Shown piece by piece: positions 20,451-53,248 of a stretch of DNA of 64,000 nt. How positions within the stretch are numbered: the stretch's first letter is position 1; each line of letters starts with the position of its first letter. Under the pieces are notes generated by a model that saw nothing but the letters and a program-made list of their open reading frames with translations, did not search any database and was not told the origin of the DNA. A program made the position numbers and the translations under genes. Source of the stretch: Blasia pusilla. Its lineage: Eukaryota. The DNA lies in the NCBI GenBank assembly GCA_050084515.1, contig CM114271.1, positions 40,796,001-40,860,000 of the forward strand. Reading direction: 5' to 3'.

Positions 20451-20568
20451 CTTGTGATAACCACAATTTTGTATTTTTGAAGATTTAGAGCTTTTGATAT
20501 TATGGTTGCGTAGTAGAAGAATAAAAAGCTCTAAATCTTCAAAAGTACAAAATTGTGGTTATCACAAG
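20451..20568. repeat. Fold-back inverted repeat, 45-bp arms (1 mismatch)
   Basis: CTTGTGATAACCACAATTTTGTA.TTTTGAAGATTTAGAGCTTTT and its reverse complement. The loop sequence recurs directly at ~20653-20683. Confidence 0.9.
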
Positions 20569-27150: not shown

Positions 27151-28420
27151 AATCCCATGGCTTCATCTTTAACATACCCTTCTAACATGCAACCCTCTGG
27201 TCTTGCTTTAGACGTGACATGCTTTTTAATTGTTCTCATGTACCTCTCTATTGGGTGCGTCCAGCGACAAGCCACTGGTCCACAAATATCAAGTTCCTCT
27301 ATTAAATGGACAAGTAAATGGGTCATTACGTCAAAGAAGGCAGGAGGAAAGTGCACCTCTAATAGACATAAGATGATAATGGTATCCTCACGTAGTCTTT
27401 TCAAGTTGGGAAGCATCATAGACTTTGACACATATACTTTTAAAGAACCTAATTAACCTCATTATAATCATCCGAACTTCCTTTTTCATGAGGCCACACA
27501 AAGAGTAAGGTAGGATTTGATGAATCAACACATGGTAGTCATATGAGTTCATATTTTCCATTTTCTTGTTAACCACATGTTTCTTCTACTGACCACAATA
27601 CTCCGTGGGCGCTTTCAATTCCTGAATTGTACCAAGAACTATCATCAACTCATGAGGAGACAGTACATAATGTGCAGTAGGTTTCAAAAGATCTTCTACT
27701 CTTTGCAGATGCTGCTGCAACCACGAATGAGGTCGAACTCTTCTTGCCTCCATATCTCTTCTAAACTTGACTATGTCTTTCATTCCAAATATTGTCTTTA
27801 CTAAGTTCCCAACAATGTTATTCTCCACATGCATGACATCCAAGGTATGGCGAATGAGAAGATGTTGATTTTTTATCAAGGAATCTCGTCAAAGACAAAT
27901 GTGAAACCAAAACAAATCCTGATAATAAGACTTTTGTTCAAGGGAAAATTAAGTTGCTAGGATACTTTCCAATAAGGTAAATTGAAGAGAAAACTCCTCC
28001 TCTTGACTCCTATTTTCTTGTATGGGTCTGAAGTACCATCTTCTCGTCCTCCACTCTCGTCATATTCTAGTTTCTCCGGAGTCCAAGCCAGAATCTCCTC
28101 ACTTGTAACTCTTTCTGGTGGTGGCCTTGTTTCCCCTCTACCATTAAAATGGATGCCATACTTCCTACCTCTCCAAGGATGAGTACAAGGCAAGTATCAT
28201 CGATGACCTCCAAAGATGGGTTTGCCACATTCTTTGGAGAAATTTGATTCTATCCGAGGCCCACATGTGGTATACGCAAGCTTCCCACCATGGCTTTGCC
28301 CTGAGATTTTACCTAATGCAGGATAGTCATTGATAGTCCAAAGAATCATCGCCTTAAAAGTAAACTCCCACTGCCCACGAGGTCTTTGAACATCTTGGAG
28401 CACCACTCCCGCCACCACCC
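27151..28420 (-). mobile_element. CACTA (En/Spm) TnpD transposase fragment, pseudogene
   Basis: ILWTINDYPALGKISG (Transposase_21-like), LLIRHTLDVMHVENNI, and LEVHFPPAFFDVMTHLLVHL...GPVACRWTHPIERYM...RPEGCM (DUF4218-like). Confidence 0.9.
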
Positions 28421-31365: not shown

Positions 31366-34300
31366 CTAACGTATGTGCCTATCTTGCATCCATTTGAAGT
31401 CTCCCAATGCCTCTTGCGCGTGCTCAAGATCTTCCTCCGCAATCCAAGTTGCCTCTTTCACATGGTGGCTTTTCCACTTGACCAAGTGCTCGTACTCGAT
31501 GGTTCTATGTCTCGAATGCATAAAGGTGCCCATCTCGAACTTTGGTTCCTCATTTTTTATGATCGGTTGTGGTCTCAACACAATCCTTCGTTCCGGACGC
31601 ACATTGTCTTGAAGACACTTCTTCAATAATGACACATGGAAAGTCGGGTGAATCTTGAACTTGGTTGAGGATGTGTACACATCCTCAAAAGGCTTTTCGT
31701 TGATCACATATGGTCCAACATACTTGGATGAAAATTTTGCGGACAATTCCTCCTGAAGAGTGAGATTCTTTACACTCAACCACACTTGCTCCCCAACTTG
31801 GAAACTCACTTGGCGCCAACTTTTGTTAGCATGCTTTACGTATCTTAGTTGAGCCTTGGCAAGACTTATCCTCGCTCTCTCTTATCGTTCATGCATTTCC
31901 ACTAACAAACCTTGTGTCGTTGCTTGACGAGTGTGTGTCAATGTAGCGCCCCTTGAAAGGACCAAGTCAAGAGGCCCTTCTGGTTCTCTATGATACACCA
32001 AAAGAAACGGATGTTCTCCGATTGTAGAATGCTTGGTCGAGTTGTAACAATACTCAACCATACTTAGCCACTTTGCCTAATCTCTTTGGTCCGCACTCAC
32101 GTAATTGCTTAAGTACTAGTTCACGATCGAGTTTAGTTTTTCGGTTTGCCCATCTGTTTGAGGATGGAAGACCGTACTAAAGTTGAGTTTGGTCCTAAAC
32201 CTCTTGAATAGATGTTTCCAAAAGGCACTGGTAAACTTCAGATCTTGATCGGACACAATCCTCCTAGGAAATCCGCGAGCTTGCCACCAACCATCCAGGA
32301 ACAGTCGCAAAGTCGTGTAGGCCATCGCAGAATCTCTCGTCGGCACAAACCTCCCCAACTTGCTAAATCGATCAACTATCATAAGTAAAGCGTTGTATCC
32401 CTCAGATTCTGGAAGACTCGTAATGAAATCCATGCTAATGCTTTGCAAGGGTCCCTATGGGATCGGCAAAGGACGAACGAAGTAAGCCTTGCTTCTTGGC
32501 ATAAGAAACTCTGTTTGTCTGACAGGTCACGCAGGTCTTCACATATTGAGCAACATCTTCTTTCATGTTGGGCCAGAAGAACCTCTTGGCCGAAACAACA
32601 AGAGTGGATTTCTCCCCTTTGTGTCTTGCCAAGATCCATCATGACATTCCACAAACACTTTGGTCCGTAGCTTGCCTTGGCCTACATAGATCCTGCTCTA
32701 CTTAACCTTAGCAAGGTGTGCCTCAAACTTAGATTGGCCACCTTCTCGCCTCGCTTCAACTTCCCAAGGCACTCACTCGCTTGCGCATGCTTCATGTATG
32801 CTTCACGAATCCTTCTTTCCAGATCTGTTTCATTAGGGAACATTGCTCTCAAGACTTGTGTCCTCGATGGCATATGCTTATCCCTATGACTTAACGCTTC
32901 TAGAATGATATTGTCTTTCCCCGACTGGTTGATAAGCTCCAAATTTTTCAATGCCAAGGTATCATGCCATGGAAGTTGCTTCGGTGTTACGCAATCCCGA
33001 GTCTCAAAATACTTGAGCGATATGTTATCCATGAATACTCGATTCTTGTAAAGTCCCAGATAGTGACGCCACTTCCTCGAGAAATGAACCGCCACAAACA
33101 ACTCTTTCTTATGAGTGGGCTATCTCCTTTCGGTATCGCTAACTTTCTTTTTCTCGTATGCTTACAAGTCTCCTTTTTGCACCAATATTCTTGTAATCGC
33201 GAAATCACTAGCATCAGTGTGCACCTCGGACGGTTGGTCAAACTCTGGTAGCTTCAAAACTGGTTCCTGCAAGAGGATCTCCTTGACTCTGTTGAACACT
33301 TTATCCACTTCCTCGATCCATGTTGTGTTGGCAAACTTGGTGGTCCAATCTGTGAGAGGTTTCACTATTCCCAGAAGTTCTTCACCTATGTCCGGTAAAA
33401 TTGGACCGCTCTAATGAATCTCCTCATCCCCTTCACAGTGGAAGGCGGTTCCCATTCGGAAATCGCGCTTACCTTCTCCATGTCTGGACTCACTCCATCT
33501 GCACTAACCACATACTGCAAGAACTTGATCTTTGTCAAACCGAACTCACTCTTATCCGCATTTGCATACAGCTTGTTCGCCCTGAGTTTTTCAAACACTG
33601 TCTTCAAATATCGAGCGTGCTTTTCTAATGTTTTCGAATAGATGAGTATGTCATCTATGTAGATGATCACAAACTCATCAGTCTCCTTGTGAAAGATGGA
33701 GTTCATCAAAGTGGTGAATGTTGGAGGTGCATTACAAAGACCGAAAGGCATTACCACAAACGCGAACGAACCGTATCTCGCCTTACACGCAGACTCTTCT
33801 CTACATGCGCTTCCGCAATCCGAATCTTATAATATCCTGATTTCAGGTCAATCCGGCTGAAACACTTGGCACTTGATCATCGATCAAAGAGGTCATCCAT
33901 CCTTGGAATAGGATAGTTGTTCCTTACCGTCACTTTATTCAGCGCCCGGTAATCAACACAAAGTCTCAACTTTCCATCTTTCTTCTTCACAAATAGAACG
34001 GGCGCTCCATAAGGTGACTTGCTAGTTTGGATGTAACCTCTCTTTAGGAGTTCACCCAACTCTTTCTTCAACTTAGCAAGTTCTTCTTGATTCAACCTAT
34101 GTGGTGCCTTTGAAGGTGTTTGAGATCTGGGTATCACCTCTATCTTATGATCAACTGCCCTATATGGCGACAACTCAGTTGGAAGCTCCTTAGTCAACAC
34201 ATCTTCAAATTCTTTCACAACTCTCTTGAGTGTTTTAGGAATTCCCCTTGAAGCCGAGCTATGATCTCTGCACCTCGCGCTTGCATCATCATCTACTTGT

Positions 34301-34575
34301 CTCATCAAGCAAAGGAATCCTTCCTCTAACTCAGTCAAACTCGTACTCGTGATGGTGTTCATCAACTGCGTCTTTCTAGGAACCTCAGGAACCAATCTGA
34401 CGTCCGTCCATTTACCGCTAACCAAGACGCTCAACCTCAAATGTCTTTGCCTTAGTTCCACCTCATACGCATCCAAGAACATATTTCCCAAGACTCCATT
34501 GATTCCGTCCATCTCGCAATCTGTGAAATTTTCCTTCAACTCGAATACTCCACATCCCACAACTAACCCTAAAAC
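31366..34575 (-). pseudogene. Chromovirus (Ty3/gypsy) pol: protease tail, RT, RNase H, integrase, chromodomain; 5' truncated and frameshifted
   Basis: [84 protein letters not shown], and chromodomain LVKWKSHHVKEATW. Confidence 0.93.
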
Positions 34576-35249
34576 GGGGGCTGGTATTGAGGCAGGAGAG
34601 AGGGAGAGAGAAGAGGAAGAGAGGAGAGTCTCTCTTTAAAAAAAAAAGGGCCAAATCCGCCTCCTCTCTTCAAAAAAATTTTACATATTTGAAATTTTTT
34701 TTGCTTTCAAATTCATGAAATCTTTAGAAGAGAGTAGGTAGTGGTCCACATTCGGGCCTAAAGAAACCTCCTTTTTCCAAGGGGCGAAAAACAAGTAGAC
34801 ATCATAAGACCACTACAAACATTTTCCCATCACTCTCCATGTGAGCCTAAGTTTTTTCACGCTGTCTCGCCTCTGATGGCAATGTGCCTGGGCTATTTTT
34901 TTTTGGAGGACCATTGGCAAATAATGTGATCAGAAGTAGCAATCTCATCTCAATGAAAGGTTCAAATAAAGACCAACTTTGTGAAATGTGAACATAGAAG
35001 ACGATAATTGAACCAAAACATTGTTAGTTGTTTGGAATAAAGAGGAACTGATGTCCCTTCATTCAGATCCGAAATCTGAGAAACTGAGAAGCTGCACCCT
35101 TCCCAATCCGTCGGAGTTTTACATGTTGCAACTCTTGCAACCCATCGGAATCAGATGGCTTGCACCCTTTGCAAGCAAGCTCACCATAACAAAGGAAAGA
35201 TTTTGAGAAGTGATTCCATTCCACCCTGCACCCTCGAAGATCCAATTGG

Positions 35250-36380
35250 TTGGGAATCCGAAATGGCAATCCGACAAGCTTTAGGAATCCAACACGTCTT
35301 AGAGAAGAAAAGAAGCCTACGACTGGTTTGACAATACTAGGGGAACGAGCCAAAAGTGAAGAAGTCCGTCAGAATGCCTCAAAAGTTGGTCTCATAGGGA
35401 AAGAGTCCGATCACTCAAGCAGCCAACCTGTCGGAATCCGACAGCTTGCTTGGAAATGGTTAAAAAGTTGCAATGGTGAAAAAGTGACAAGTTGCAACCC
35501 GTCTGAATCAGACAGGTTGCAAAATAAACATTCTAAGTAGCTAGACGAACACAATCGACAAGGTCACAAAAAATATTCAGCAAAATTTTACAAACACCAT
35601 TATCGTTTGAAAAAATCTTGTCCCTTATTACATCCGAAGGAAGCTCGGAAACGATCATTTGATCTAGTATATGATTTCTTCAGCCTCGTCATCTACAAAT
35701 TTACTCCTAACTCTCCTAGGTTCCTGTACAAAAGGAATGTCGTGGGATACAAGTGGCTCCTCTGGCCAATTGTAGACGGGGATCGAAAATATTGGCGAAT
35801 TCGAGAGCCTTGGCACCCCCTTAGGTACACCATAACGGTCCCATGTAACCTGATTTGAGTCCCACCGCCTTCCTTGGCAGTAAATCTTGTACGCTCTGCA
35901 ATATGACACCCATCCAGTATCAATATGTGCTCCGTCCTTGGAGACACCATCATGTCCTCAGCCAGGTAGTAGGAATCCAACACGTATTAGAGAAGAGAGG
36001 AAGCGTAAGACTTGTTTGACGAAACTAGGGGAAGGTGCCAAAGTGAAGAAGCCCACCAGAATGCCTGTAAAGTTTGACTAACAGGGAAAGAGTTCGATCA
36101 CTCACGCAGCCATCCTGTCAGAATCCGATAGGTTTCCTGGAAGTGGTTAAAAAGGTGCAGTGGTCAAAAAGTGAAAAGTTGCAACCTGTGGCAATCCGAC
36201 GGGTTGAAATATGAAGTGTCAGAGTACATAGACGATCACAATCGACAAGACCAAAAAAGATATTCAACAAACTTTTACAAACACCATCATTGTTTGAAAA
36301 AATCTTGTCTTTTATTACATCCGAAGGAAGCTCAGAACTGTACATTTGATCTATTCTATGAATTCTTTTGCCTCATCAAA
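35250..36380. repeat. Subterminal direct repeat (~690-bp period) in the left arm, mirrored at ~50000-51110 in the right arm
   Basis: GGAATCCAACACGT..TAGAGAAGA at ~35284 and ~35972. AAACACCAT....GTTTGAAAAAATCTTGTC at ~35592 and ~36279. Confidence 0.8.
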
Positions 36381-36434
36381 TAAATCCCTACTCCAAAACG
36401 CTGCAATCAAGCACGGTCCTTGAGTACTTTGAAC

Positions 36435-39400
36435 TCACTCTTCATCGTCTGAGAGCTCCTCCAGAATCACTGTCAGCCTTGCCCTCCCGATTGTTTGAAT
36501 TGTGGGAAGTGACGATGGTGTCACTACCAATGGTGGGTCTCGAACCGGAGCTGTCGGCTTCGAAGGAGAGTTGTACTAGCAACAGGCTAGTTGGAGGCCC
36601 CAATTAGCATGTCGTAATGTGCCTTTGCCTCTTTGCAAAGGTCAAACAATTCCTGCCTTCCCTCAAGGCAAAGAATGTTCCTGCCACTTTGCCAGGCGCC
36701 TCTGATACTCGCCCCCGAAAGGCCCACTAAGTCGAACACCAAGTCACCCGGCCTTGAGCAGAGCTCAATTAGCGTTTGCATCAGCACCGTCAACTTTTCC
36801 CTTCCTCCAAGTAAGGGGATACCATTTTCCATGTAAATTCCTGGGGAGGAAATGTATAAACTATCTAAGCTGTACCCATCAGAGCATGGATCCATTGGAT
36901 CGAGGATCTGAAACACTTGGAAGTTGTGCTCATGCCTTACAAAACAGTAGACAAAGGAGTGGTCCATCTGTTAAGAAGTAGGTTTGGAAAAAATGTCAAC
37001 AACAAGAAAGAGCTAATTTCAGTATGCAACAACAAGAAAGGTATACTATTAGAATGGTGACACAATGTGCAACTCGTTCCCAAAGAACTTTGCTTAACCC
37101 CAGAGAACTTAGTTATAGTCCTAATATTGGAGCAACCTGTTGGAGTCCAACGGGTTGTTTTACAAGTGTTAGTGATTTTTTTTGCCATTAGCAACCCGTC
37201 ACAAGGCGACAGGTTGCTAGCTTAGAGCAGCCCATGGTTGGCTAAGAGCAACCTGTTGATTCAGACGCGTTGCATCATTCTAGATACACAAAGAAAAGCA
37301 TAAGCACTTGCAACTCGTCGGGTTCCAACGGGTTGCATTCACCCAATGGAGACTTGCAGTAAATTTGCAACCCATCGCTTTCAGATGGATTGCACCACCG
37401 AAGTCTCCAGCTCAGAAAATCCGATGGGTTGCATGCAGAGATGCAACCCGTCGGAGCTAGAAAATATGGATATGGATTTAGAGGCCTTACCTGGATTTGA
37501 CTCGTCGCGGATCAGAGTGGGTACTCGTTCTTGATGACCCACGATTGCGTCGTCCTTCACTTCAGCGGCGTCTTGACGCACTGCAGGTTGAAGAGCTCGT
37601 CTTGGCTCCCTCCAATCAAAACCAAGAAACAGCCCTTGTCACTGAGATAAGCGTTTGCAAAGGAAAACATGAGTGCGATCTGGTCATAAGAAAGAGGGAC
37701 ATTCTAGTCTGGGACACTGTAGAACGGATGCTTGTCCCACAAGCGCAACCTCGAGGGCAAATCAGCGACAAGGAGATCCACCGCGACCTCCTCGACCTCC
37801 CCATGGACCGTCCAAGGAGCGTGCCCGTTTTGTTGAATCTTCCGTCCCAGCGTTGTCAATTTGTCGATGGTGGGTGTCGACGCTTGGGAACTGAAACTTT
37901 TCAGCTCATCCAAAAGATTCGTGCAGTGAATGATGACGCTTGTCCGGGTCGTTGTTGATCTATGTCTTCCCAAGGATGATGGAGTGTATTCCACATCCTG
38001 GTCTGCTTCCTGGGACAAACCTGGTGCCTCTCGCTTCCGCTTCTCCCAAGTCTGCGATCGACTTGTTGGGGTCTCTATTACCTCATACTCTGGTGGAGTG
38101 TTTTTTGCGGAGGACCTGATCCAATCCTCTCTTTCCACTTGCCCGGAAGATTCCGCCCCTTGCCTTGAATTCTCAGCCTCCTTTTGGGAAGACTCGGCCT
38201 CGGAATTCTTTGATCCCCTCGCCTTGGGTTTGAGACCCGCCATAGATTTTTCCTTGGCGGTGACGACCTTGGACACCAACTCCGTTGTCTCGATGGCTTG
38301 CTCCTCCGCATCTCCTTCGAAAAAGTCTTCAAGTTGCACAAAATTGGGGATGTCGTCCCTACCTGCGGCCACTACATCACTGAGCATGCGTAGATTTTTA
38401 TCGGTTATGTCCTCAGGATCGTTGAAGTCCAGCCAGATCGGGCAATTCTCCACCTCCCAGTCGGACATGCTTTGAGCCATCTCCATGTCGTACATGGAAA
38501 ATGTCTCTCCATTAGGCGGAGAAGCCCACAATTTGCAGGCTGCCGGTATTTTTTGCCACCTACTTGCATTCTTACAATGGACGAGGTACCTGATCACCAT
38601 GTGTTGGGCAACTCTTAGTCGACATGCATCGGCCGCCTGCTCCTGAAGATCTTGCTTTTTCTTTGCGAAATCCCTTTTCCTTCACCTCTATTTCTTCATC
38701 AAGGTCTGCCTCATGGAGGATGTGATCCTTGAACATCGTCCTGAAGCCTAGGTTTTTTATGGGCTTGTCCCGCATGTCATCCAGCCAAAGTTTAAAATCT
38801 TCAGCACTCTCTAGGTTTACTTCCTGCGGAACAACCTCTATTTTTTTCAGCTCTGCTTGGAGGCCCACGAGCATGGACTTCCCGAGAAGCCGCAACGCGT
38901 CCCAGAATGACCATTCACGGAGCCCGTGGGAGATCACTGGATCAGAGACACCTAGAGGATGCTGTACCACCCTCTTTTGGGCCTCTATGCCCTCGAGACT
39001 GATTTTCATTAGTCGGATTCTCCTAAATTCCGAAATTCCAGACAAGGCAAATCAATGGACACGTTCGAGAGATACTTTCTCCCCAATCCGACCGTGCGGA
39101 TCTTCATCCCTCTTCCGCTGGCGCTTGATTATCGCCTTCAGCTCCTTGTAGAAATCGGGGCCAAGTTCGGGGTTGAGAATGGCGATATAGCGCTGCATCT
39201 TGCTTGCAGTGTACTTCGTAGCTCGAGATACTACAGTTTGGATAAACTTAGCACGCTCAGACACAAACACTTTCTCCCTCCGCTCCAGCTCCAATGAAGC
39301 GCTCTTCTTGGCGGCCTGTATCTTCGACCAGCAAAGGATTGTCAGGGCTGCATCTTGGGAAATAAATGTATTTTCCCAAGTCTTTTTTTTTATTTGAGCC

Positions 39401-39584
39401 CCCTTCGCCAGCATCTCATTTACAAGGGCGTCGCCCAAGAACATGTGGTTTCCACTCTTGAACTGGGTCCACGCCATGAACTTGTGGTTTCCATCCCAGA
39501 TGAAGAAATACAGGTTCCGCATCCAACTCAATTCCGTCCCCTCAATCGCCCTTCTGAATTCATGATCTCTCATCCTCCAGAATG
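36435..39584 (-). pseudogene. Left-arm copy of the ParB-like + N6A/N4C methyltransferase-like gene (5' truncated, internal deletion, intron 37490-36968)
   Basis: FFIWDGNHKFMAW; VDLLVADLPS; REKLTVLMQTLIELCSRPGDLVFDLVGLSGASIRGAWQSGRNILCLE. Colinear with the right-arm gene. Confidence 0.75.
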
Positions 39585-39979
39585 GAGGTGCGGTAAGAGG
39601 AGAGGAAGAGAGGAGAGAGGAGAGAGGAAACTACCTTCAACCGAAATAGATACTTTTTTTTTAAGAGAGTTTCCGTTGGGTTGAAGAGAGGAAACTTTTT
39701 GTGTGAATTTTTTTGCACTTTTTTGTTCATTTATTAAGTAGTCCCACAGTTTTTTTTTCCTCTTCCATATTTTGGCAACCCCTCTGAGTTCGACGAGTTG
39801 CAAATTGCACAAAATTTAGAAAACTGAAAAATCAGTGGAATCATAATTGTGGAACCAATCACTTTTTCCATCCAAGGTCTGGAAAAAATCTGTCATTTTC
39901 CCCGGGCTGAATAGAGTTCAAGCTCAAAGTGAAGGTTCAGGAAAAATAAAAGTACAATCTAACACCTCATTTTGCATCC

Positions 39980-42900
39980 TCAAAGTGGTTTGTTTAAAAT
40001 ACTTCGCACTTCTTTAAGGGACAGAATTGGTTGGTGGATTCCTACTCCTACCTCCGACTCTCTTAAAACTACCAGCAACACATAGTACATGTGCTTACAA
40101 GGGAAATACCTTTTGCCACTTGTCTCTCTTTGGACAAAGTCATCACATGAACATGTGGGAAAGCAACAGATGTGCACCACATACATCCCTGTGACTCTTG
40201 AATTTACAGTGTTGTTCCTGACCCAATACATCCTTCCTATTCCATTGCCACTCAAGACATCTTTCGTGGCGATGATCTACATTTTTGCCTCTCGAGCTGA
40301 TGCAATTCGCTTTGCTCTCTCCATCGTTGGCCAACACATTCTGTTTCTCTTCACCCCATTTCTAGACTCAAACAGAAATAATGGATTGAGATCATCCACC
40401 TTCTCCGGGTACATGTTGACATCAATCTTGGGTTGAATACGAAATACGAAGGTCTCTGTAATGCGAACATGCTCCGAACTTCCCCCGTCTACGAGTCTGA
40501 AACCGGCACTTGTAAGATTGTCCACTTCGTCTTGAGTGTAGTTCGTACCTGCGGCGATGGGCCAAATCGTGGGGGTATTCCCCAGAGCTCCAATGGCAGC
40601 CGCATAAGACTTCCGGAAAGCGCAAGATTCATTTGGGCAGAAGAAGTACTTCAATTGATCCCCGGTCCTCGTGAAACGATCAAAGTTTTTGAGTCCCCAA
40701 AACCCAGGCAATGGTCGTCCAGTCCTTGTACAGTTCTTATTTAGGAAAGTGCCGCATGCTCTCCTAATGCCATCAGATCTTGCCCTGCAGGTGAGTCCGC
40801 GTCCTGGGTTACTCTGAGATATATGCCACCGTTTTAGGTTGCAATCCACCTCCATTACCGGAATCCCATATTGTTGAACCACCGTAGTGACAGGATGTTG
40901 CGAACTTCCAGAAACAGAGGGCTTTTGAAATAAAACATTCATTGATTTTGGAGAAGTTACTCCATCACGGATTTGGGATGGGTCCGGGGTCCCCGAATAC
41001 CTGGGCGGCGTAATTTCCTCATCCAAATCAATCACCGGATTCCTTCCTCGATGCTGCCTCTTCACCTGCCTGAAGTCAAGATACTTATCTGATCTCCAAG
41101 TCTCACGGGATCGCTCTACCACCATCTCAGATGGGGACGTCTTGAAACCTGCCCACGAATATCCCCACCAATGTTTACGTCTTGCTCGAGGGGAGTTCCA
41201 GCTACGCACCGGTTGAAGGCTTCCACATACATTTTTCATCACCAGATCTCACAGCCGCCCTGACATAGAGCTCGTAGATCGACGGCCCCCTTCCTTTTGT
41301 TATGCCTTTTGTGAGGAAGATATGGGATGCTGCAGACTGTAGCATTGCTCTTGCCTAGTCTTGTTGGCATGCCTCCACAAGTGAAATTCGTAGGCATGCT
41401 TGTGACGACCTCCACGAGGAATGAACACTTTCTGCTCCACTTGTGTTGGGACAGAGGGCATTTTCATGAACGTTCAATCCCTACAACGACGGCAATGTTA
41501 GAAGGGAACAAAAATAACTCAGCAGTCAAAGACATAAGCTACCTGTCGGAACCCAGACGGGTTGCAAGGCCGAGGCATCCCATGAACGACTCTACGACCC
41601 GTCGGGTCCCGACGCGTTGTAACCTTAAACCCACCTACTGCAACCCGTCGGAACCAGACGGGTTGCAAGGCCGAGGCATCCCATGAATGACTCTGCGATC
41701 CGTCGGGTCCCGACGGGTTGCACACTCGGGTTGCACCAAAAATTTGGATGCAACCCGTCGGTTTCCGTCGGGTTGCACACTCGGGCAACCCGTCGCATCC
41801 GACAGCTTGCTTGGTTTTTTCGATTTGAAATCCCTATAGTTCCCACGCTTCTCACCCTGAGCTACAACTTTACAAACAATTCTCAGCGTGAGCTTGACAA
41901 GACAAAATAGTGAACTCACCTACCGCATGAAGTTTCCCCATTGTCTCATACGTACAGTCCACCAACTCAACCAAGAGCACAACTCTTTGTACTTCCCCTC
42001 AATAGTTCTTCCTGGCATTCCATGGCCTGCTTCAAGGTTTTGTTGTCCTTGCAGCGTTGGAGTAGAGTGGCATGCTCTGTCCTCTTATTCTCCTTGATGC
42101 AAGATTTGGTGTACCGTGTCATAGACTGTTGCCAGTGGAAAGCATCCGACCTTTCCCTCTCCGGTTGAATCTCTCCACCCCATAACACTTCCCGGATAGC
42201 AATCCACCCAGGTTGTGCATTGTCTGCCATGAACACATAAATTTCCGGAGGTGGCCTTTTGTTTTCCTTCACCACCTCCAATAAGAGTAACCAGCACATC
42301 TTCAAACTGCCAACGTCTTCTGCCTTTACTTCACAGACAAATATAGTTTTGAGTCCCTTCTCCACATGGTCATAAACGTGAGCACCCATCGTCAACCATC
42401 CATTTAGCACTCTGGAGCAAATATCAAAGCTTACCCAGCTGCCATAAAGATCTTCCCCTTCCCTCATTCGATCTATAAGATCGAGGCCACTCGACGGACA
42501 TGTGGTTGACATTTTGAAGACATAGGCCCTGGATCCCTCGCCTCCTTGGCCCATGAACTGCCATCTCTGAATGAATGGAAATCTAGAGTTGGCCTTGATT
42601 CTGGCGATGGCATCCATTTCGGCCATCTTTCCATCCAGAACTCGTATTTGACGTAGCAAATTCCAGAAGCATTCAGGATGAGCGAGAAATGCGAGATTTT
42701 CCCATAGTTGTTTCTCCTCAGCCGCCGTGATCTCACCCTGTCCAGGGATTCCAAACAATTGTTCACAAATTTGTGATGTCGTTGTGAGCTTGATCACTCC
42801 GGGCTTTGAACCCGAAGAGTTTCTGTAGACCTTGTCAACTTTCTTCGCCACATCCTCCTTGATGTGTCTCTGAATTGCATCGCTCACAGGATGAGTGTGG

Positions 42901-43910
42901 GAGCCAACATGAACTTCCAGCCTTGTGTACTCTGACGTGGAGCCCAAGTCGTGGACAATGAAAAATATGTATGCAGGACACGCTCCAACGCAGAAGGGCG
43001 ATGCCTGACAATGAGGACATCGATGGCCTCCCGGCGGTATGGTGGCACCGACCTCGTATGGAGTTTCTGCATTCTTGGGGGGGAATTGCGACGTATTGAC
43101 TCGCCCGTTGCGCTCTAGATACGGGCATGCTGGACTTCTACACTCCAAGGCTCCCACGCATTGGCGGCGGGAGACAATCCAAGGACCATCTGGAATTGAA
43201 GCACTAGTCCGTTGAAGCCTGCACCATCGATGACAATCGACTTTTCGCCCATACCCTTTCAGCGCCCTCCATCTTTCTTTTGAGCAGGAGCAGCAAGTGG
43301 AGGCAACTCAAAAATGGAATTACCATCGTACGTGGGCGGCAACTCGTCATCAAGAATGTGCTTGAACATTTTCAAGGCCAGAGACAAAAGCAAACTATTT
43401 TGCCTGATACTCGCAAGAGGAACGAGTAGGCGGACAGAGGGCCCGGTTGGTGTCTGACAGATCCACTGAGGTTGATAACATCCGGAATCTCTTCAGGAAG
43501 AACAACATTGATACGAGCGTGTGAAGTTGGAGTGGAAGCCGGATCTGCAGAGCTTGGAGTTGCAAACGTAGAGCTCGGAGCACTAGGAAATTCTAGACCG
43601 TCTACTTGGGAAACAGACGAATTGGGCAAAAGGGGCCCGTAAACTCAGATTGACCATTTGCTAGAGGTAGGAGATTCCATACTTTACGGTCTGAGGTCAC
43701 TGGTTGGACGGTCTCACCTATTATGTCTTCCGTACCGTCCACCCTAACATCTTTGGATACAAAGATGGTTCCAATTTGGAGAAGAAATCGAACAGAGAGA
43801 AAATTTTCATCCACTGCTATGAAAGACTCTCGAGCTTGCGGTCGAATGATTTCTGATTGAGGAAGGGCCGCCAGATGACTGCCACAAGTGAGCTTAACAT
43901 AATTATCCAT
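39980..43910 (-). pseudogene. Mutator-like (MULE) DDE transposase with an N-terminal GCM-like Zn domain and a C-terminal SWIM finger; one intron (~41918-41482); several frameshifts and stops
   Basis: CVGALECRSPACPY...CPHC...C...HVGSHTH. Catalytic WVSFD, FMADNAQ...AFHWQQS, WLSWWTVR, PNTSGAESVHSSW. SWIM CSCDDF...CKHMYYV. Confidence 0.8.
41500..41810. repeat. Palindrome cluster in the transposase intron
   Basis: Multiple GCAACCCGTCGG-n-(T/C)CGACGGGTTGC variants, including a ~110-bp internal duplication. Confidence 0.85.
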
Positions 43911-43991
43911 TCCCAAAAATTTCGTACGGGAGGAGGGTGAGAATGAGAAAAAGAATGAGAATGAGAATGAGAATGAGAATGAGAATTTTTA

Positions 43992-43998
43992 ATTTATA
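43992..43998 (-). promoter_or_regulatory. TATA box of the transposase gene
   Basis: TATAAAT on the minus strand, followed by (TCTCAT)n and the ATG at 43910. Confidence 0.55.
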
Positions 43999-44204
43999 GT
44001 GAATAGGAAAACAGATACTTCTGACAGATTTTTACTGACAAGATGAATTCGGTAGGTGACATTGTCTGACACAATGGATCCAATTCTGTTGCAATGTGTT
44101 ATCGGATTTGGGAAGCAGAGACGTGGGTTGCGAAGCACACTTCATTTTGTTGGATCCTGTCGGAGTCCTGGTAACTCAACAATTAACCCAAGCTAAGCGA
44201 AGCC

Positions 44205-44767
44205 TACAACCCGTCGGCTTCGGACGGGTTGCACGCTTCTGCCTTCCCTTCAAACGCAAACATGGTCGAAGCTGGCAACCCGTCGCTCTCCGACGAGTTG
44301 CTCGGATATAGCTCCTTCTTGCCCGAAGATGCCGGAGGCGTGCAAACCGTCTGTTCCCGACGAGTTCCACGGGTGCCGCACCTATTTGCCCAAAGATGGC
44401 AAGGCGTGCAACCCATTGCCCTCCGACGGGTTGCGCAAGGGCCTCGCCTTGTGGTGCTTACATGAAGGAAGCGTGCAACTTGTCGGACTCCGACGAGTTG
44501 CGCGGGAAGCCCGCGTTGTTAACCCTTGACGAGGGAAGCGTGCAACCTAGCGGTCTCCGACGGATTGGGCGGGTACGTCCCGTTCTTGTCCAAAGACAGC
44601 GGAGGCGCGCAACATGTTGGTCTCCGACGGGTTGCGTGGGTACCTCGCGTTCTTGTCCAAAGACGGCGGAGGCGCTCAACCCGTCGGTCTCCGACGGATC
44701 GTTCGCGCACGTGGCGACGTACCCAGGACGGCGGAGGCGCGCAACCTCTCGGACTCCGATGGGTTGC
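44205..44767. repeat. Array of nine 27-bp palindromes at ~67-bp period in the divergent promoter
   Basis: Copies start near 44208, 44275, 44342, 44408, 44475, 44542, 44609, 44677 and 44741. Confidence 0.9.
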
Positions 44768-44857
44768 CATTTTTTCACGTCCGGACTTCCGTAACCTCCG
44801 GCACGTCGCCGTCGAAAGGACGACCGGACCCAAGGGTCAGCCCAACGGCTAGAAAAG

Positions 44858-44865
44858 TATAAATA
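44858..44865 (+). promoter_or_regulatory. TATA box of the ParB-MTase gene
   Basis: TATAAATA followed ~20-60 nt later by a CT-rich/TCA initiator-like region; ATG at 45125. Confidence 0.6.
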
Positions 44866-46224
44866 GGGCAGAAATTGCTCATTTCCGGTTTCTCATTTTG
44901 CGATCTCCATTCCTCTCTCTCCCGCGCAGCAGCTGATCAGATACCAAGGGGCGTTTCACACGGCGAGTCATCGCGAGTCGATACAAGGGAACGAGAGTGA
45001 GACGGTTCGACTGAACGATCACGAGACGATTCAAGCTACCCATCAAGGCGACTCATCTTGACATCAGCAAGGCGACTGATCAAGCGATTCATCGTGGACA
45101 TAGGTGGAGGCATTTCCGAAAAAAATGACGAGGAAAAAATCACAAGCAAACAAGTTTGGGAGCTTCACTCCGAAGTCCATTTGTACTCCTGCGTCAGCAT
45201 CTCCAGGGCCTCGTTCGGCAAATGAAATTAGGCAGCAAGAAATCAAGGAGCGGGAAAGCGAAGCGGAGATGCACAACCAGGAGCTTCTTGCGAGACGTGT
45301 TCAAGAGGCGCTTGATAGACAGAACGCAGAGGCTGAGACGTCGCAGGCCTTGAAGAAAAGGATCGCCGACGAAAAGAGAGAAAAGAAGCGTCTGGACGCG
45401 TCGGTGAGGAGAGCAGAATTGGCTAAAGCGATGAGGGAAAAAGCGATAGCCATTGATGACAGCCCTGCTTGTCCAACCGAAAGTGTTGAGATGCGGGAAA
45501 TGTCCCCGATGAAGTCCGGGGACACAATCAACATAGCGGAAACGCCAGAAGTTCAAATCACGGACGATGAGGTCATGAGGACCGCTAGCGTGGAGATGGT
45601 GGACATTGCCGAAGAAGCCGGAGAGCGGTCATTCTCGTCTCCAAGCACGGCAGAAGACATCAACCTCTATCGTATCGACGAGTTCCTAGTCGATTTTCCA
45701 GCTTTTGTCTCAGACAAGTTGGCTGGTCAAGAAACCGACCCAATTTTTGAGCGGGTAAGAGAGGATCTGGAATTTTTGAATTATGTGAATTGCAATTCAT
45801 TGGGAATTCAATGTAGCTTATTGATCAGTCCGACGAGGACATTGCAAAGCTTAAACAATCGGCAGAAACAGCATCCTACGTCGATAGTTTTCCTCCCTTA
45901 TATGTTCAGCCTTACGACGAGCATGGAACCCAAGCCCTGGTTACGGAGGAGGACTTGGAAAAGCTCCACACATTCTGGAGGATGAGAGACCACGATTTTA
46001 GAAGGCAAGCAGAGGGCACGGAATTCAGCTGGATGAGGAATCTGTATTTCTTCATCAGGGATGGAAATCACAGGTTCATGGCGTGGACCAAGTTTGCAGA
46101 GGAGCAGCCCAACTCCTTGGAGCCACATTTTTGCGTGAAGGCAGTGGTCCTTCATCCATTCCCTCATCACATGGCGACGGTGGAGATGGCAATGCATGCC
46201 ATGAACACGTGAGTATCTTCTTGC

Positions 46225-46980
46225 TGCAAACCGTCGGACTCCGACAAGTTGTTTGGGTCGGTAGTGTTGTTGGGATGCTTTTGGCCAAACGCAACTCGTC
46301 GGACTCCGACAAGTCGCTCGATTGATGAATGGCTTACGTTTTTTTTTGCCGAAAGCAACTCGTCGGACTCCGAGTTGCTCGACTCGACGCTTTTTCAGGA
46401 TGTTTCTTGAAGAATGCAACTCGTCGGACTCTGACGAGTTGTTCGACTGACCACAGGTTTAATACGTTTTTGACCCAAAGCAACCCGTCGGAGTCCGACG
46501 GGTTGCTCGACTCGCCGCCTTTTCAGGATGTTTTTTGAAGAAAGCAACTCGTCGGACTCCGACTAGTTGTTCGACTGACCGCAAGTTCAGTATGTTTTTT
46601 GCCCAAAGCAACCTGTCGGAGTCCGACGGGTTGCTTGACTCGAAATTGTTTTTGGCCGAAATCAACTCGTCCGAGTCCGACAGGTTGCATTCGGAAGTTG
46701 GTTTAGCAAATTTCGCGTCAAATTGCAAGTTTCCATTCAATTGCGCAACCTGTCGGACTTTGACGGGTTGCTATGTTCACGTTAGTATGTTCAATTCCAC
46801 AACCCGTCGGAGTCCGACGGGTTGAAACCAAGAATTAGCAAATCTGAATGCAATCCGTCGGACTCCGACGGGTTGCATCATTTAGCTCGTTGCTAGAATC
46901 CGACTTTGAGCTGTGACGACCCGTCGGAGTTCAACGGGTTGCAGGAACCCATGTAACTTACAAATTTTCTGACGGGTTGA
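46225..46980. repeat. Palindrome array (~12 copies, ~64-bp period at the 5' end) in intron 1
   Basis: Perfect copy GCAACCCGTCGGAGTCCGACGGGTTGC at 46480-46506. Spacers alternate A/B. Confidence 0.9.
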
Positions 46981-49099
46981 GTTTGGATGTGCAGGATTGT
47001 ATCGGAGGGTAATGTCACCCACCACTGGATCCAAGATTGCGATCGGGTGAAGAAGGTGCTTACGATGCACCCGGGAGAGTACAAGGGGTTCTTGGGCGAC
47101 GCCCTGGTAAATCAGATGCTTGCAAAGGGTGCTCAGATAAAAAAGAAAACTTGGGCAAATAAGTTTATTTCCCAAGATGCAGCCGTAACCATCCTTTGCT
47201 GGTCGAAGATACAGGCCGCGAAGAAGAGCGCTGCATTGGAGCTTGAGCGGAGGGAGAAAGTATCTAGGTCTGAGCACGCGAAATTCATCCAAGCTGCAGT
47301 ATTTGCAGCCACAAAATACACGGCGAGCAAGATGCAGCGATACATCAGCATTCTCAACCTCGAACTTGGTCCAGAGTTTTACAAGGAGCTGAAGGCGATT
47401 ATCAAGCGCCAGCGGAAAAGGGATGAAGATCCGCAAGGTCGGATTGGGGAGAAAGTGTCCTCGGATCACGTGCATCGGTTTGCGGTGTCTGGCATAAGAG
47501 AGTTTAGGAGGATCCGACTGATAAAAATCAGTCTCGAGGGCAGAGAGGCCCAGAAGAGGGCGGCACACCATCCTCCGGGTGTGTCCGATCCAATGATCTC
47601 CCACTGGCTACGCGAATGGTCGTTCTGGGACGCGTTGCTATGGTTATCGGAAGTCCGTCGGACGGTCTGCAAGCAGAGCTCAAAAGATTAGAGCCCATTC
47701 CGGATGAAGCAAACCTGGAAAGTTCTGTAGATTTCGAGGTTTGGCTCGAGGACATCCAGGACAAGCCAATAAAAAACCCAGGATTCAAGACAATGTTCAA
47801 GGTTTGCGTCCTACCTCAAGCAGAGCTTGACGAAGAAATCGAGGGGAACAAACGGGATCAAGCAAAGAAGAAGCGAGATCTACAGGAGCAGACGGCCGAT
47901 TCAGTTCGAGTAAAAGTTGCCCAACGGATGGTCTTCAGGTACCTCGTCCAATGTAAGAATGCAGGTTCCTGGGGAAAATTATCGGCAGCCTTGAAATTGT
48001 GGGCTTCGCCGCCTGATGGAGAGACATTCTCCATGTACGACATGGAGATGGGGCAGCACATGTCTGATTGGGAGGTGGAGAATTGCCCCATTTGGCTTGA
48101 CTTCAACGATCCTGAAGACATCACCGATAAGGATTTACGAGTGCTTCATGATGCAGTGGCCTCAGGACAAGACGACATCCCCAATTTTGTGCAGCCTGAA
48201 GACTTCTTCGGAGGAGGAGATGCGGAAGAGCAAGCCCACGAGACAGCTAAGTTGGCTTCCAAGGTCCGCACAGCCAAAGAAAAATCCACAGCGGGTCTCA
48301 AAGGCAAGGCGAGGGGAGGGAAAAATTCCAAGGCCGAGTCTTCCCAAAGAGAGGCTGAAGATTCAAGGCCAGAGGCGGAATCGTTCGGGCGAGCGGAGAG
48401 AGAGGGTCGGACCAGGTCCTCGGCGAAAAAAAACCCCACCAGAGTCTGAGGTCATAGAGACCCCGACAAGCCGTCCGCAGACTCGGGAGAAGCGGAAGCG
48501 AGAGGTGCCAGGGTTGTCACAAGGAGAATACAGTCCATCATCCTTGGGAAGACATAGACAAACAACGACCCGGACAAGCGTCCTCCTTCAGTTCACTCCT
48601 TTACTGGATGAGCTGAAAAGCTTCAGTTCTCAAGCGTCGACACCAGCCATTGATAAATTGACAACGCTGGGACGGAAGCTCCAACGAAATGGGCACGCTG
48701 CCTGGACGGTGATCTCTTGATCGCTGATCTGCCCTCGAGGTTGCGACTATGGGGCGAGAATCGTCGGACGGGGTACCTGAGTGGAATGTGCCGCTCTCTT
48801 ATGACCAAATCGCGCTATTGTTCTCCTTTGCAGACGCATATCTAAGTGATAGGGGCTGCTTCTTGGTGTTGACTGGAGGGAGCGAGGACGAGCTCTTCAA
48901 CCTCCAGTACGTCAAGAGGTCGCTAAAGTGGAGGACGACGCAATTGTGGATCATAAAAAATGAGTACCCACTCCGATCCGCGACGAGTCAGATTCGGGTA
49001 AGGCTCAATTCCTGTAGTATAAGATCAAATATATTTTCAAATTTGGGTAAGGCTCAATGAGTGTTAATTTCAAATAGTATATCTCCGTTGTTTTTTTCC

Positions 49100-49330
49100 G
49101 TAAGCAACCCGTCGGAAGGCGACGGGTTGCTGGCTTAGAGCAGCCCATGCTCAGGGAACCCGACGGGTTGCAGTTGCTTCTGGTTTTTCCCTGTGTTTCC
49201 GGAAAGCTGCAACCCGTCGGAAAGCGACGGGTTGCTCACGCGATGGGTTGCTGCTCTAGGCCAGCAACCCATCGCCTTCCGACGGGTTGCTCACGGACAA
49301 AACAACCCGTCGGACTCTGACAGGTTGATC
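49100..49330. repeat. Palindrome cluster in intron 2 (counterpart at ~37130-37460 in the left arm)
   Basis: GCAACCCGTCGGAAGGCGACGGGTTGC and variants. Confidence 0.85.
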
Positions 49331-51778
49331 CAAAGTTAGTAATTGAAAAAGTTCTCTAGGGTCAAACCGACTTCTTTGGTGACGTGTTGCACATTATGCC
49401 AAGTTGCTGACATTGTTTCCAACGTGCTTCTTTACAGATGGACCACTCCTACGAATACTGCTTCGTTCGGCCCGAGCACAATTTCCAGGTGTTCAAGATC
49501 CAGAATCCTGTGGATCCATGCTTAGATGGGTACAGCTTAGATAGTTTGTACAATTCCCCCCCGGGAATTTACATGCAAGATAGTACCCCACTTCTGGGAG
49601 GAAGGGAAAAATCGCCAGCCCTCATGCAAACGCTCATCGAGCTCTGCTCAAGGCTGGGTGACTTGGTGTTCGACTTAGTGGGACTTTCAGGGGCAAGTAT
49701 CAAAGGCGCCTGGCAGAGTGGCAGGAACATTCTCTGCCTCGAGGGAAGGCATGAACTGTTTGACCTTTGCAAGGAGGCAAAGGCAGAATACGAAAGGCTC
49801 ATTGGGGCGTACAACTCTCCACCGAAGCCGAGAGCTCCGGTTCCAGACCCACCATTGGTAGTGACTCCATCGTCACTTCCAACGATTCCGAAAATCGAGA
49901 GGGCAAGGCCGAAAGTAATTTTGCAAGAGCTCTCGGACGATGACGAGTGAGTTCAAAGAACTCAAGGACCCAGCTTGACTGAAGCGTTTGAGTAGGGAGT
50001 TATTTGATGATGAGGCAAAAGATTTCATAGAATAGATCAAATGTACAGTTCCGAGCTTTTTTTGGATGATATAAAGGAGATGATTTTTTCGAACGATGGT
50101 GGTGCTTGTAAACATTTGCTGAACATTTTTTATGTCTTTTCGAATGTGATCGTCTATGTACTCCGCGGACTTCTATTTTGCAACCCGTCGGATTTCTCCA
50201 GCTTGCAACTTTTCACTTTTTGACGACAACACCTTTTTACCACTTCCAGACAACCTGTCGGATTCCGACATGTTTCCTGATCGGATTCGATCGGTTTCTC
50301 GATCGGACTCTTCCCTGTTGGTCCAACTTAAGAGGCGATCGGAGGGCTTCTTCCTTGGCACCTTCCCTCAACTCGTAAAGGCGGCGAGGCTTCTTTTCTT
50401 CTCTCGACGTGTTGGATTCCTACTACCTATGCGATTGCCATAATGGTATTACCAAGGACGGAGCACATATTGATCTTTGGATGGGTGTCACATTGCGGAG
50501 CGCACAAGGTATCTTTGCCGAGGAAGGCGGTGGGACTCAAATCAGGTTACATGGGACCGTTTTGGCGCACCTAGGGGGGGGGGCAAGGCTCTCGAATTCG
50601 CCAACATCTTTTATCCCCGTCTACAATCGGCCAGAGGAGCCACTTGTATCCCAGGACATTCCTTTTGTACTGTCACCGAGGAGAGTTAGCAGTAAATTTG
50701 TAGATGACGAGGCTGAAGAAATCATAGACTAGGTCAAATGTACATTTCCGAGGTTCCTTCGGAGGTAATAAAGGACGAGATTTTTTCAACCCATAATGGT
50801 GTTTGTAAAAGTTTGCTGGAATATTTTGTTGGACTTGTGGATTGTGTTCTTTTAGCTACTCAAAATTACAATTTTGCAACCCGTATGATTCTGACGGGTT
50901 GCAACTTTTTGCTTTTTGCCCACTGCAACTTTTTAACCATTTCCACGATTCCGATAGGTTGACTGCTTGAGTGATCGGACTCTTTCCCTGTGAGACTAAC
51001 TTCTGACGCATTGTGGCGGGCTTCTTAACTTTTGGCTTGTTCCCCTACATTTGTCAAACCAGTTGTAGGCTTCTTTTCTTGTCTAAGATGTGCAAGATTC
51101 CTACTACCTGTCGGATTGCCACCCAACCTGTTAGATTGTCGTGGGTGCAGGGTGGAAGAAAATCACTTCTAAAAATCTTTCCTTTCTTATGGTGAGCTTT
51201 CTTACGGGTTGGGAGGGGTGCAGCTTCTCGGTTTCTCAGCTTTAGGATCTGAATGAAGGGACATCAGTTCCTCTTTACTCCAGACAGCTAACAATCTTTT
51301 GGTTCAATTATCCTCTCGTGTGTTCACATTTCACAAAGTTGGTCTTGAGCATACACCATTCATAACCAACAGAAAGTTGGTTATGGGGCAATTCAGGGGA
51401 GGCCATGATGCAGGCAACAATCCCTGCAAAAAGAGAGGTCGGCATCCGGGTGGTCCTCCAACAAAAATACCCATGGGCACTGCTTTTTGTAGACCGAGAC
51501 AGGTAATGTTAAGAAACTTAGGCTCACATGGAGAGTGATGGAAAAATGTTTGTAGTGGTCTTATGATGTCTACTTTTTTTTCGCCCCCAGGAAAAAGGAG
51601 GTTTTTTTAGGGCCAAATGTGGACCACTACCTACTCTCTTCTAAAGATTTCCTGAATTTGAAAGCAAACAAAAATTTCAAATATATCATAAAGTTTTGAA
51701 GAGAGGAGACGAATTTGGCCCTTTTTTTTTAAGAGAGACTCTCCTCTCTTACTCTCTCCTAATAGAATATCAGCCCCC

Positions 51779-53248
51779 ATCTCACACGGCCAAAACTCAA
51801 CCTGAATATTTTGGGTCATGGAGTAGTTTAAGGCTTGAGTGGGCGAGACAAGTTCCATGGGAAGGTGTAGGTCTTGGATTAGTTCAATTGGACCTTAAGG
51901 ACACTTCTCCACCGGATTCCCAACTATGGGAGCCGAATACAATGGACGAACTTGCTCAACTCACACTTGGAGATGCAGTCGGAACTTCAATCATTTGGCC
52001 GGAGCTGAATATGAAGAAGCTAGTTCATTAGGATCTGTGGATTCTATGATTTTCAAGATTTTTAAAAGTTTCACGATGATTCCATCAAATCATTTGTTTG
52101 TAGTTTGGCTTCCATATGCTCTTGGTTCCTACTTGCAGCTTGTTCAGATGTAAACGCTATGATTATGCAATACAATCAATCATCCATATTTTGGTTTCAT
52201 CAATTAGAGAATGGTTTGATTGTGATGTATCTATAGTTTTCAGTATTCATTGTAATTGGCATGTACCCAAGAATCACTTGCTTGATATATGTCCCTCTTC
52301 TAGAGCTTCAGATTGAGATTTTGTCTATCCTCACCATTGTATATGCTGCTTGTATTCACACATTACTCCTTGCTGGATCTGAGAGAATCTCAATTTATGT
52401 TACGAGGATAATGTTACTTAGATGGCCATCACATAGTTACCAAAGTAACTCCTCTGATTTAACAATCACTAGGAGGAGCAATGACAAACTGTGAACACAA
52501 TTCATGATCTAGTAATAAAAAAAAACTGATAAAGTAGGATGAATCACTAATACAATATGTAAAATAACTCAGACCGCCAAAATATTATGTAATGGTAAAA
52601 AAAAGGACTAATCTTGTCAGAATAATAACTCATACAGTAAACACAATGACTCAAATGGTTAGGAAACATGACTCATACACTCATGAATGACTCGAGATAA
52701 ATGACTCAACCATCAATATAATGTCTTAGTTAGTGTAAAATATGACTATACTACATTTAAGGTGACTAAAAGAGTCGTAACTGCGAACCCATCTAGTCAT
52801 AAATAATGACTCATTTAGTCATAGGAAATGACTATGTATACGGTTGGTACGTATGACTCACTCATTTCAACCACCTGTCACTCAATCATTCGTTCATATC
52901 ATTACATATGTCATCATCTAATTGAGCCTAAAATATCCAGCGTTCCCAAATATGACACGTGGCAATACAATAGTTGATGCTTATTTTGCCACGTCATTTC
53001 TTATTGCCATATCATATGCCAACTTGGCACTATGACGTGTCATTCACACGTGCCATCTTAGTCATATATTAATGATTCAGTATCTAATGACTTGAGTCAT
53101 TTACCAATCTAGTAGTGAGAGTCATATCCTATCTATGACTTGGTTTATATGACTCTAATGGTTATGAGTCATCGTGAGTCATTTACCGTGAATAATGACT
53201 CAACCTAGTCATTTATTAGAGTCATATAATACGCAATTTGTTCTAGTG
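51779..53248 (+). mobile_element. 3' end of a CACTA element: TnpA-like C-terminus, subterminal ATGACT/AGTCAT repeats, terminal ...TTCTAGTG
   Basis: TLGDAVGTSIIWP motif (ORF ends 52031). Many direct and inverted ATGACT(C) copies at 52640-53230. Ends TAGTG at 53248. Confidence 0.7.

Follow-up and report, generated by a model that had tools for sequence, protein, structure and literature searches.

The window analysed here, a stretch of 64,000 nucleotides from the genome of Blasia pusilla (assembly GCA_050084515.1, contig CM114271.1, positions 40,796,001 to 40,860,000 of the forward strand), harbours an array of nine degenerate 27-bp palindromes (44206-44767) between the two divergent genes of a 12.2-kb Mutator-like element (MULE) without long terminal inverted repeats (TIRs). 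One of these genes encodes the transposase, the other an accessory protein that combines a ParB-like motif with a helical and a methyltransferase-like domain. The array is real and functional-looking. Comparisons within and between subfamilies of the transposon indicate that the palindrome is a family-specific, sequence-conserved and two-fold symmetric cis element, and it is probably bound by a dimer that the element itself encodes. As the best reading, held tentatively and in part by analogy with other transposons, we propose that a dimer of the accessory protein may recognise it throughout the element.

Sequence, distribution and conservation of the palindrome

The units of the promoter array start at 44206, 44275, 44342, 44408, 44475, 44542, 44609, 44676 and 44741, i.e. 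at start-to-start distances of 69, 67, 66, 67, 67, 67, 67 and 65 bp. The nine units at a period of ~67 bp reported in the initial annotation of the window are thus present, and 20 base-shuffles of the window contained no match at up to 8 mismatches. The consensus given there, however, occurs exactly in none of them (0/9), each unit departing from it at 3-6 positions. Within the array the palindromes are 75% alike, the 20 bp before them 58% and the 20 bp after them 48%, so that the spacers have indeed diverged more than the palindromes. As the spacers are nevertheless homologous to one another, the array is a 67-bp minisatellite, with a period that is the product of tandem duplication, and not the CRISPR that it had been said to resemble. 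Degenerate repeats and spacers that recur across subfamilies likewise speak against a CRISPR; no Cas family appeared in a Pfam scan of 12 open reading frames (33.9-50 kb), and Rfam, which includes CRISPR repeats, gave 0 matches in 39500-52000. Some of the 40-bp promoter spacers (44233-44740) hold a second, imperfect inverted repeat, which is found in none of the intron spacers.

The motif is not peculiar to the promoter. A scan of the window at up to 9 mismatches gave 46 matches between 35103 and 50902, including a second array with a period of 64 bp; a single match (9 mismatches, at 47612) is exonic. Exons account for 6816 of the 12194 bp (56%) in the majority sequence of the element and contain 0/34 sites. 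The 34 sites span the promoter, the introns and the 3' region, and no full palindrome lies within ~190 bp of the left or 800 bp of the right end. The termini carry a different motif, GA-rich repeats, which together with the lack of nearby palindromes suggests a second specificity besides end recognition.

The transposon family is large. From 2094 candidates, 40 promoter copies were scored, at 86-100%, and a further 3514 candidates gave 150 last-exon matches; neither total of candidates is a copy number. The 390-Mb genome contains 522 exact palindromes. Twenty of these were sampled, all from among the first 50 places that the listing gives for contig C1. Fourteen align, over the site, with the window element; introns of divergent copies account for four, a miniature for one, and the last lies in an intron-array fragment of the family without an exon within the 3 kb read. 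At 20 other loci with a MULE domain, neither the motif (0/20) nor the accessory gene (0/20) was present. The detached intron-array fragment (L085:1252-1833, 10 sites) adjoins a PIF1-like helicase frame (2261-3001; Pfam E-value 0.019, below the cut-off) and was possibly captured by, or inserted in, a Helitron.

Gene-less miniatures of the family retain the palindrome. In 19 of the 20 loci fetched they are elements of 306-674 bp with both ends, and 13/20 loci show target-site duplications (TSDs) with at least 8 of 9 bases matching, offsets of 2 being allowed. One to four sites at up to 5 mismatches, separated by AT-rich spacers, are carried by 18/19. Because elements without genes keep the motif, its role exceeds the regulation of two genes, and control of both genes, as first proposed, is not supported as a full account. 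In miniature L116 the target duplication is part of a palindrome. Beside another lies a repeated element whose minus-strand frame (L082:178-693), without a Pfam match, shows by eye a motif that we take to resemble motif I of C5 cytosine-methyltransferases.

All 30 same-subfamily loci, the one in the window included, have 8-9 detectable units. Among these copies palindrome and spacer diverge equally (305/7273, 4.19%, and 392/9463, 4.14%), which is formally the outcome that the initial annotation named as refuting its reading; the differences are mostly CG and CHG transitions, i.e. neutral decay of inserted copies, and the comparison is therefore uninformative. Selection acts along transposing lineages, so subfamilies were compared instead. 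Transversions there affect 66/1752 positions (3.8%) in palindrome arms and 321/2920 (11.0%) in spacers of 67-bp units (73 of 78 units kept, five with spacers less than 40% alike being dropped), and 20/696 (2.9%) against 188/1073 (17.5%) in 64-bp units (29 of 34 kept); as the units are related and were chosen by palindrome match, the counts are non-independent and the contrast is inflated. Stronger evidence comes from the intron clusters. Palindromes of promoter and intron clusters are 83% alike and their flanks 22-34%; in addition, each of five divergent intron clusters contains 12-15 sites, which recur at periods of 34-118 bp amid largely unrelated spacers. The motif is thus kept, as had been claimed, among subfamilies with an accessory-gene synonymous divergence (dS) of 0.40-0.66, while the spacers have been replaced.

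The spacing, by contrast, is not conserved, and the idea of phased sites is not supported. Common spacing classes range from 34 to 119 bp without a 10.5-bp helical phase (R 0.16 over 28 classes), and other subfamilies show altered unit number and order, alternating two-unit repeats and homogenised runs. The sole fixed distance is that from the last site to the TATA box, 89-90 bp in the window subfamily and 89 bp in four of the six other promoter arrays that passed the filter, from 14 loci given. A central GANTC, the site of CcrM and HinfI, was considered as a methylation target and rejected: it occurs in 2/9 promoter, 9/11 intron-2, 1/4 intron-3 and 0/4 transposase-intron sites, of those listed, and is therefore not a conserved part of the motif.

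The host element and its transcription

The ends of the element (39585 and 51778) were set by comparison with ten other genomic copies. TSDs of 9-10 bp flank 3/5 full-length copies tested; the window copy has no target duplication of its own. Since the ends have only GA-rich short repeats in common and lack the long TIRs of the TIR type, the element is a MULE of the non-TIR type, as which it is also identified by its transposase and target duplication. Its features and those adjoining it are as follows (coordinates, strand, description, with the basis in parentheses).

39585-51778, no strand: whole Mutator-like element, 12.2 kb, decayed copy (ends and TSDs of other copies)
39585-39700, plus: left end, GAGGTGCGG, then GA-rich short repeats (end comparison among copies)
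39775-39801, no strand: lone palindrome, 190 bp inward of the left end (palindrome scan)
39990-41479, minus: transposase 3' exon with Cys-rich region and C-terminal SWIM-like motif read by eye; lower boundary approximate
41480-41919, minus: transposase intron with four full palindromes (41594, 41640, 41695, 41750) and half-sites (6 spliced reads, one run)
41920-43700, minus: transposase 5' exon with Cys/His-rich N-terminus and SFDIC, FMADNA and DAFHW motifs; start approximate (ESM Atlas)
43992-43998, minus: TATA box, transposase side (in 28/30 same-subfamily loci)
44206-44767, no strand: promoter array, nine degenerate 27-bp palindromes in a 67-bp minisatellite (sequence comparison)
44858-44865, plus: TATA box, accessory side, 90 bp past the last palindrome (in 26/30 same-subfamily loci)
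45125-45755, plus: accessory exon 1, charged, low complexity (boundaries inferred from sequence)
45826-46207, plus: accessory ParB-like exon with WDGNHR motif (sequence comparison)
46208-46995, plus: accessory intron with 12 palindromes, 46226-46942 (GT..AG joint, 6 reads over three runs)
46996-48998, plus: accessory exon 3, all-helical domain, linker and methyltransferase motif IV region (DLPSG)
48999-49438, plus: inferred intron with five palindromes (49104-49328), the cluster itself an inverted repeat (splicing not seen in RNA reads)
49439-49950, plus: accessory last exon, methyltransferase motif I region binding S-adenosylmethionine (SAM), DLVGLSG (profile matches)
50180-50902, no strand: 3' non-coding palindromes at 50180, 50250 and 50876 (palindrome scan)
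51714-51778, plus: right end, CT-rich short repeats terminating in CCAGCCCCC (end comparison among copies)
34576-39584, minus: partial inverted copy of another subfamily, 77% identical (same palindromes in intron and 3' region)

The intron at 46208-46995 is partly a 64-bp tandem array with AT-rich spacers (46226-46635), the second array mentioned above. The window copy lacks ~108 bp at 45825, in the ParB-like exon, that are present in other copies. The partial copy is broken within its ParB-like exon where the main element starts, and what might be taken for a single 17-kb inverted-repeat element at 34.6-51.8 kb is in fact two separate copies. In both, the 3' non-coding region (50000-51120 and 35260-36380) consists of a ~700-bp tandem duplication, in each unit of which two palindromes lie ~70 bp apart. 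The element is flanked by remnants of long terminal repeat (LTR) retrotransposons, namely reverse transcriptase frames and RNase H-like ones, at 33877-34560 (minus strand) and 26911-27456. Short self-inverted (hairpin) segments of 63-120 bp at 16202-16264 and 20451-20631 are not related to it.

The initial annotation let the array fill a bidirectional promoter. It does lie between divergent genes and between two TATA boxes, but covers only ~560 bp of an intergenic region of ~1.4 kb. Transcription is low and runs on opposite strands on the two sides of the array, over which RNA coverage is at its minimum. Reads from three runs (312, 427 and 336 on the element) are mostly 90-95% alike to the window copy and hence derive from other copies; for each of two palindrome-bearing introns, splicing is supported by six reads. 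RNA depth is greatest in the last exon and at 50346-50766 (region 49504-50766), with reads joining 49959 or 49989 to 50452; this probably stems from a read-through or deleted copy elsewhere. The ratio of observed to expected CpG reaches 1.35-1.5 within the array and immediately to its right, compared with 0.25-0.41 at the element ends, 0.68-0.88 in five of six exons and 1.09 in exon 1. A CpG-rich promoter is as expected if it is kept unmethylated, or selected for CG, in the transposing lineage.

The two proteins as candidate binders

The minus-strand gene encodes a MULE transposase. Its first match in the ESM Atlas (0.97, 191 shared features) carries MULE on 61% of members, and the D, D and xxxH motifs are conserved in copies; Pfam hmmscan alone gave no match. 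The accessory gene, on the plus strand, has four inferred exons that contain, in order, a charged N-terminus, the ParB-like WDGNHR motif, the helical domain and a region with the motif order of beta-class amino-methyltransferases. Of its 36 library matches, 35 align at about 23-35% identity, the remaining one being a low-complexity match; among 20 of these homologues looked up, all that have an organism name are hypothetical proteins of the liverwort Riccia (KAL3677308.1 and KAL3686416.1 being examples of Riccia homologues). Pfam scans of the accessory protein and 21 homologues gave no relevant family above the cut-off, word-index protein searches (one of them limited to proteins of 2114-5000 residues) gave no matches, scans of metagenome and viral contigs revealed no relatives, and the exact palindrome was absent from the prokaryote and viral contigs scanned.

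The WDGNHR motif is conserved and has a DUF1015 match below the cut-off (E-value 0.005). The modelled domain around it (pLDDT score 46) has no fold match, a null result that does not show the absence of ParB; 'ParB' is thus a label at the level of the motif, its fold being unconfirmed. For the central domain, the model of a Riccia homologue is helical with high confidence (residues about 311-713); the lack of a fold match (best Z 4.8) does not show a new fold. For the methyltransferase-like domain, the PHROG DNA methyltransferase profile matches the window copy (E-value 6e-5) and a Riccia homologue (2e-7), and Pfam N6_N4_Mtase matches protein P0043 (5e-5) and, below the cut-off, the window copy (0.002); PDB sequence searches gave weak methylase matches or none. 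Motif IV precedes the SAM-binding motif I, as in the beta class. The catalytic (D/N/S)PP(Y/F/W), however, is replaced in the aligned homologues by D-[LMV]-P-[STIKE] without an aromatic residue (LIADLPSG being the commonest form in genomic copies), so the domain may be inactive or atypical.

The ratio of nonsynonymous to synonymous divergence of the accessory gene between subfamilies (0.13-0.22), the methyltransferase exon included, indicates that this gene is under purifying selection. Its dS there (0.40-0.66) contrasts with ~0.17 for the transposase gene (loci L051-L068), which suggests that the two halves have been swapped between lineages, the loci having been chosen through accessory-protein searches with a possible bias. 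A search for a related transposase without an accessory gene gave broken copies only.

The motif is conserved in sequence and, as earlier proposed, probably bound by an element-encoded dimer. The accessory protein is favoured as its partner because it is under purifying selection, because the transposase is more likely to have its site in the different repeat of the element ends, and because the layout parallels that of VANDAL transposons and their VANC proteins. Its dimer would recognise the palindromes element-wide, these sites building up by tandem duplication where coding constraint permits (in the promoter, the introns and the 3' region), and selection in transposing lineages would retain the motif and not the spacers. 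The bound protein would label the DNA of the family as self and hold it open or mobilisable, and would also keep the CpG-rich bidirectional promoter active, much as VANC acts on VANDAL.

Several observations weigh against this role of the accessory protein. Structure and fold searches detected no recognisable DNA-binding fold in it. Amino-acid conservation between the sampled subfamilies is higher in the transposase (medians 0.82-0.90) than in the accessory domains (0.65-0.82), so the transposase fits an unchanging motif equally well. The avoidance of exons is expected for any repeat. A full site is lacking in one miniature whose TSD matches at 8 of 9 bases, and the transversion contrast in miniatures is small (2.9% in palindromes vs 4.2% in spacers), besides being inflated between subfamilies, as stated above. 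CG decay in inserted copies is uniform (6-8%) near and far from the sites, and hence no lasting local protection from methylation is visible. Finally, VANC motifs are short, non-palindromic and quick to turn over between families, whereas the motif of the window is long and constant (PMC5735166, PMC10398659).

The main rival, which we consider unlikely, assigns the palindromes to the transposase. Bound via one of its Cys-rich domains, they would enhance transposition from within the element and serve its autoregulation or self-activation. Miniatures keep the sites and, in the simplest model, require the transposase only, which is also the more conserved protein in the sampled loci. For AtMu1, the transposase by itself suffices to bind and activate cognate copies, but its binding is at TIRs (bioRxiv 10.64898/2026.08.24.746577), whereas the palindromes here are internal and the ends have a different repeat; moreover, a transposase bound to them would leave a conserved accessory gene without a target. 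Nested insertions are common among copies (L031-L130), and 5 of ~15 junctions fall inside a palindrome or no more than 12 bp from one, where ~2 are expected (P ~0.05), a weak point in favour of the transposase from loci that were not sampled blind.

A more elaborate version of binding by the accessory protein, which strikes us as quite improbable, is that a bryophyte-type Mutator transposon adopted a prokaryote-derived ParB-methyltransferase fusion, which would load on parS-like 27-bp palindromes all over the element, spread along the DNA, and write or shield a base modification, thereby licensing its own transcription and transposition. If true, this would be a bacterial-style self-recognition turned against plant silencing.

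That the motif is bound by a transcription or chromatin factor of the host, the sites of which the element would have hoarded, is very unlikely. Such a factor would account for the fixed position of the last site 89-90 bp ahead of the TATA box, and the half-site contains a CCGAC/GTCGG core, which we take to be that of ARF and AP2/ERF sites. The 13-bp arms are long for such a factor, though, and the CGTCGG halves, 3 bp apart, do not match what we assume to be the ARF spacing; furthermore, 19 of the 20 sampled exact sites lie in elements of the family and the last in its intron-array fragment.

A role as DNA or RNA structure (cruciform or hairpin), e.g. in splicing, replication or small-RNA handling, is highly improbable. 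The 13-bp arms are near-perfect, promoter spacers fold slightly better than shuffles (mean z -0.75 over 76 related spacers), and one intron cluster forms a larger inverted repeat. Intron spacers, on the other hand, do not fold (z +0.48), Rfam has no match, and the sequence itself, beyond its symmetry, is the same in unrelated contexts. Over 30 sites, departures from the consensus are mostly one-sided (51, with 6 symmetric and 3 other), so that compensatory changes are rare (6/60 departing pairs), which favours a site read as sequence over a hairpin.

The least credible explanation, a functionless neutral or selfish mini-repeat spread by slippage and arm-to-arm conversion, agrees with the equal divergence in the 30 same-subfamily copies and with arrays that gain, lose and homogenise units, but not with a CpG-rich 27-mer that persists among unrelated neighbours in five divergent intron clusters despite the CG decay, nor with its retention in miniatures stripped of nearly all else.

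Comparison with known systems

We found no description of this element in the literature, of which subscription papers and bioRxiv supplements, out of reach here, may contain one. With CRISPR arrays the promoter array shares palindromic repeats of similar size at regular spacing. It departs from them in its homologous spacers, its degenerate repeats and its eukaryotic host, and the search for cas genes found none. The candidate site is presumably longer than parS. The parS/ParB system and phage ParB-methyltransferase loci (PMC4738411) are resembled in the clustering of palindromes and in a protein that joins a DGxHR motif like that of ParB to an amino-methyltransferase-like domain, which phage profiles match weakly, but the present case is a eukaryotic transposon with introns, with an unconfirmed ParB fold, no helix-turn-helix found and no ParA partner encoded. 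ParB-linked adenine methyltransferases are known from phages, chlorophytes and chytrids, and the accessible part of the same paper mentions no such transposon (PMC4738411).

Prokaryote-like methyltransferase domains in a mobile element or a liverwort genome have precedents in DNMT retrotransposons, reportedly, as a further case of a transposon-borne enzyme, and in two systems described in more detail. These are the DAM-LTR retrotransposons, in a preprint whose main text does not mention Mutator, MULE or ParB (10.64898/2026.05.21.726589), and DN4MT1 of Marchantia, the enzymes of which carry TSPPY (10.1101/2021.02.12.428880). Unlike these, the domain described here is part of a DNA transposon and has D-[LMV]-P-x-G in place of TSPPY or DPPY; it is under purifying selection despite its non-canonical active site.

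As regards the binding of clustered cognate motifs by an element protein, non-autonomous relatives included, the putative situation here resembles that of TnpA of Spm/CACTA and of the AtMu1 transposase, whose motifs are, in contrast to those of this MULE without long TIRs, terminal or within TIRs (bioRxiv 10.64898/2026.08.24.746577). The closest layout is that of VANDAL and VANC, likewise Mutator-like, with degenerate TIRs, an accessory gene and family-specific clusters of non-coding motifs that expand as tandem repeats (PMC5735166, PMC10398659); VANDAL motifs form dynamic tandem repeats, located in introns and ahead of the transposase gene (PMC5735166). The element of B. pusilla has these traits: it is a non-TIR MULE, it carries an accessory gene, and its non-coding tandem repeats hold motif clusters specific to the family. 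It differs in that the VANC21 motif is 9 bp long, non-palindromic, in one orientation and of fast turnover (PMC5735166, PMC10398659), whereas a 27-bp palindrome is constant here across subfamilies, and in that its accessory protein, without a Pfam family above the cut-off, has a methyltransferase-like domain. By inference from this analogy the element may work like VANDAL and VANC; the likeness is one of layout, the type of motif being different.

Self-recognition by sequence-specific accessory proteins of transposons is known mainly from Arabidopsis VANDAL, from Spm and from maize, and the present family appears to be an independent case in an early-diverging lineage of land plants. With a long and well-defined candidate site, two candidate proteins and gene-less miniatures as natural reporters, it makes the self-recognition and protection of a TIR-less DNA transposon testable by one binding experiment.
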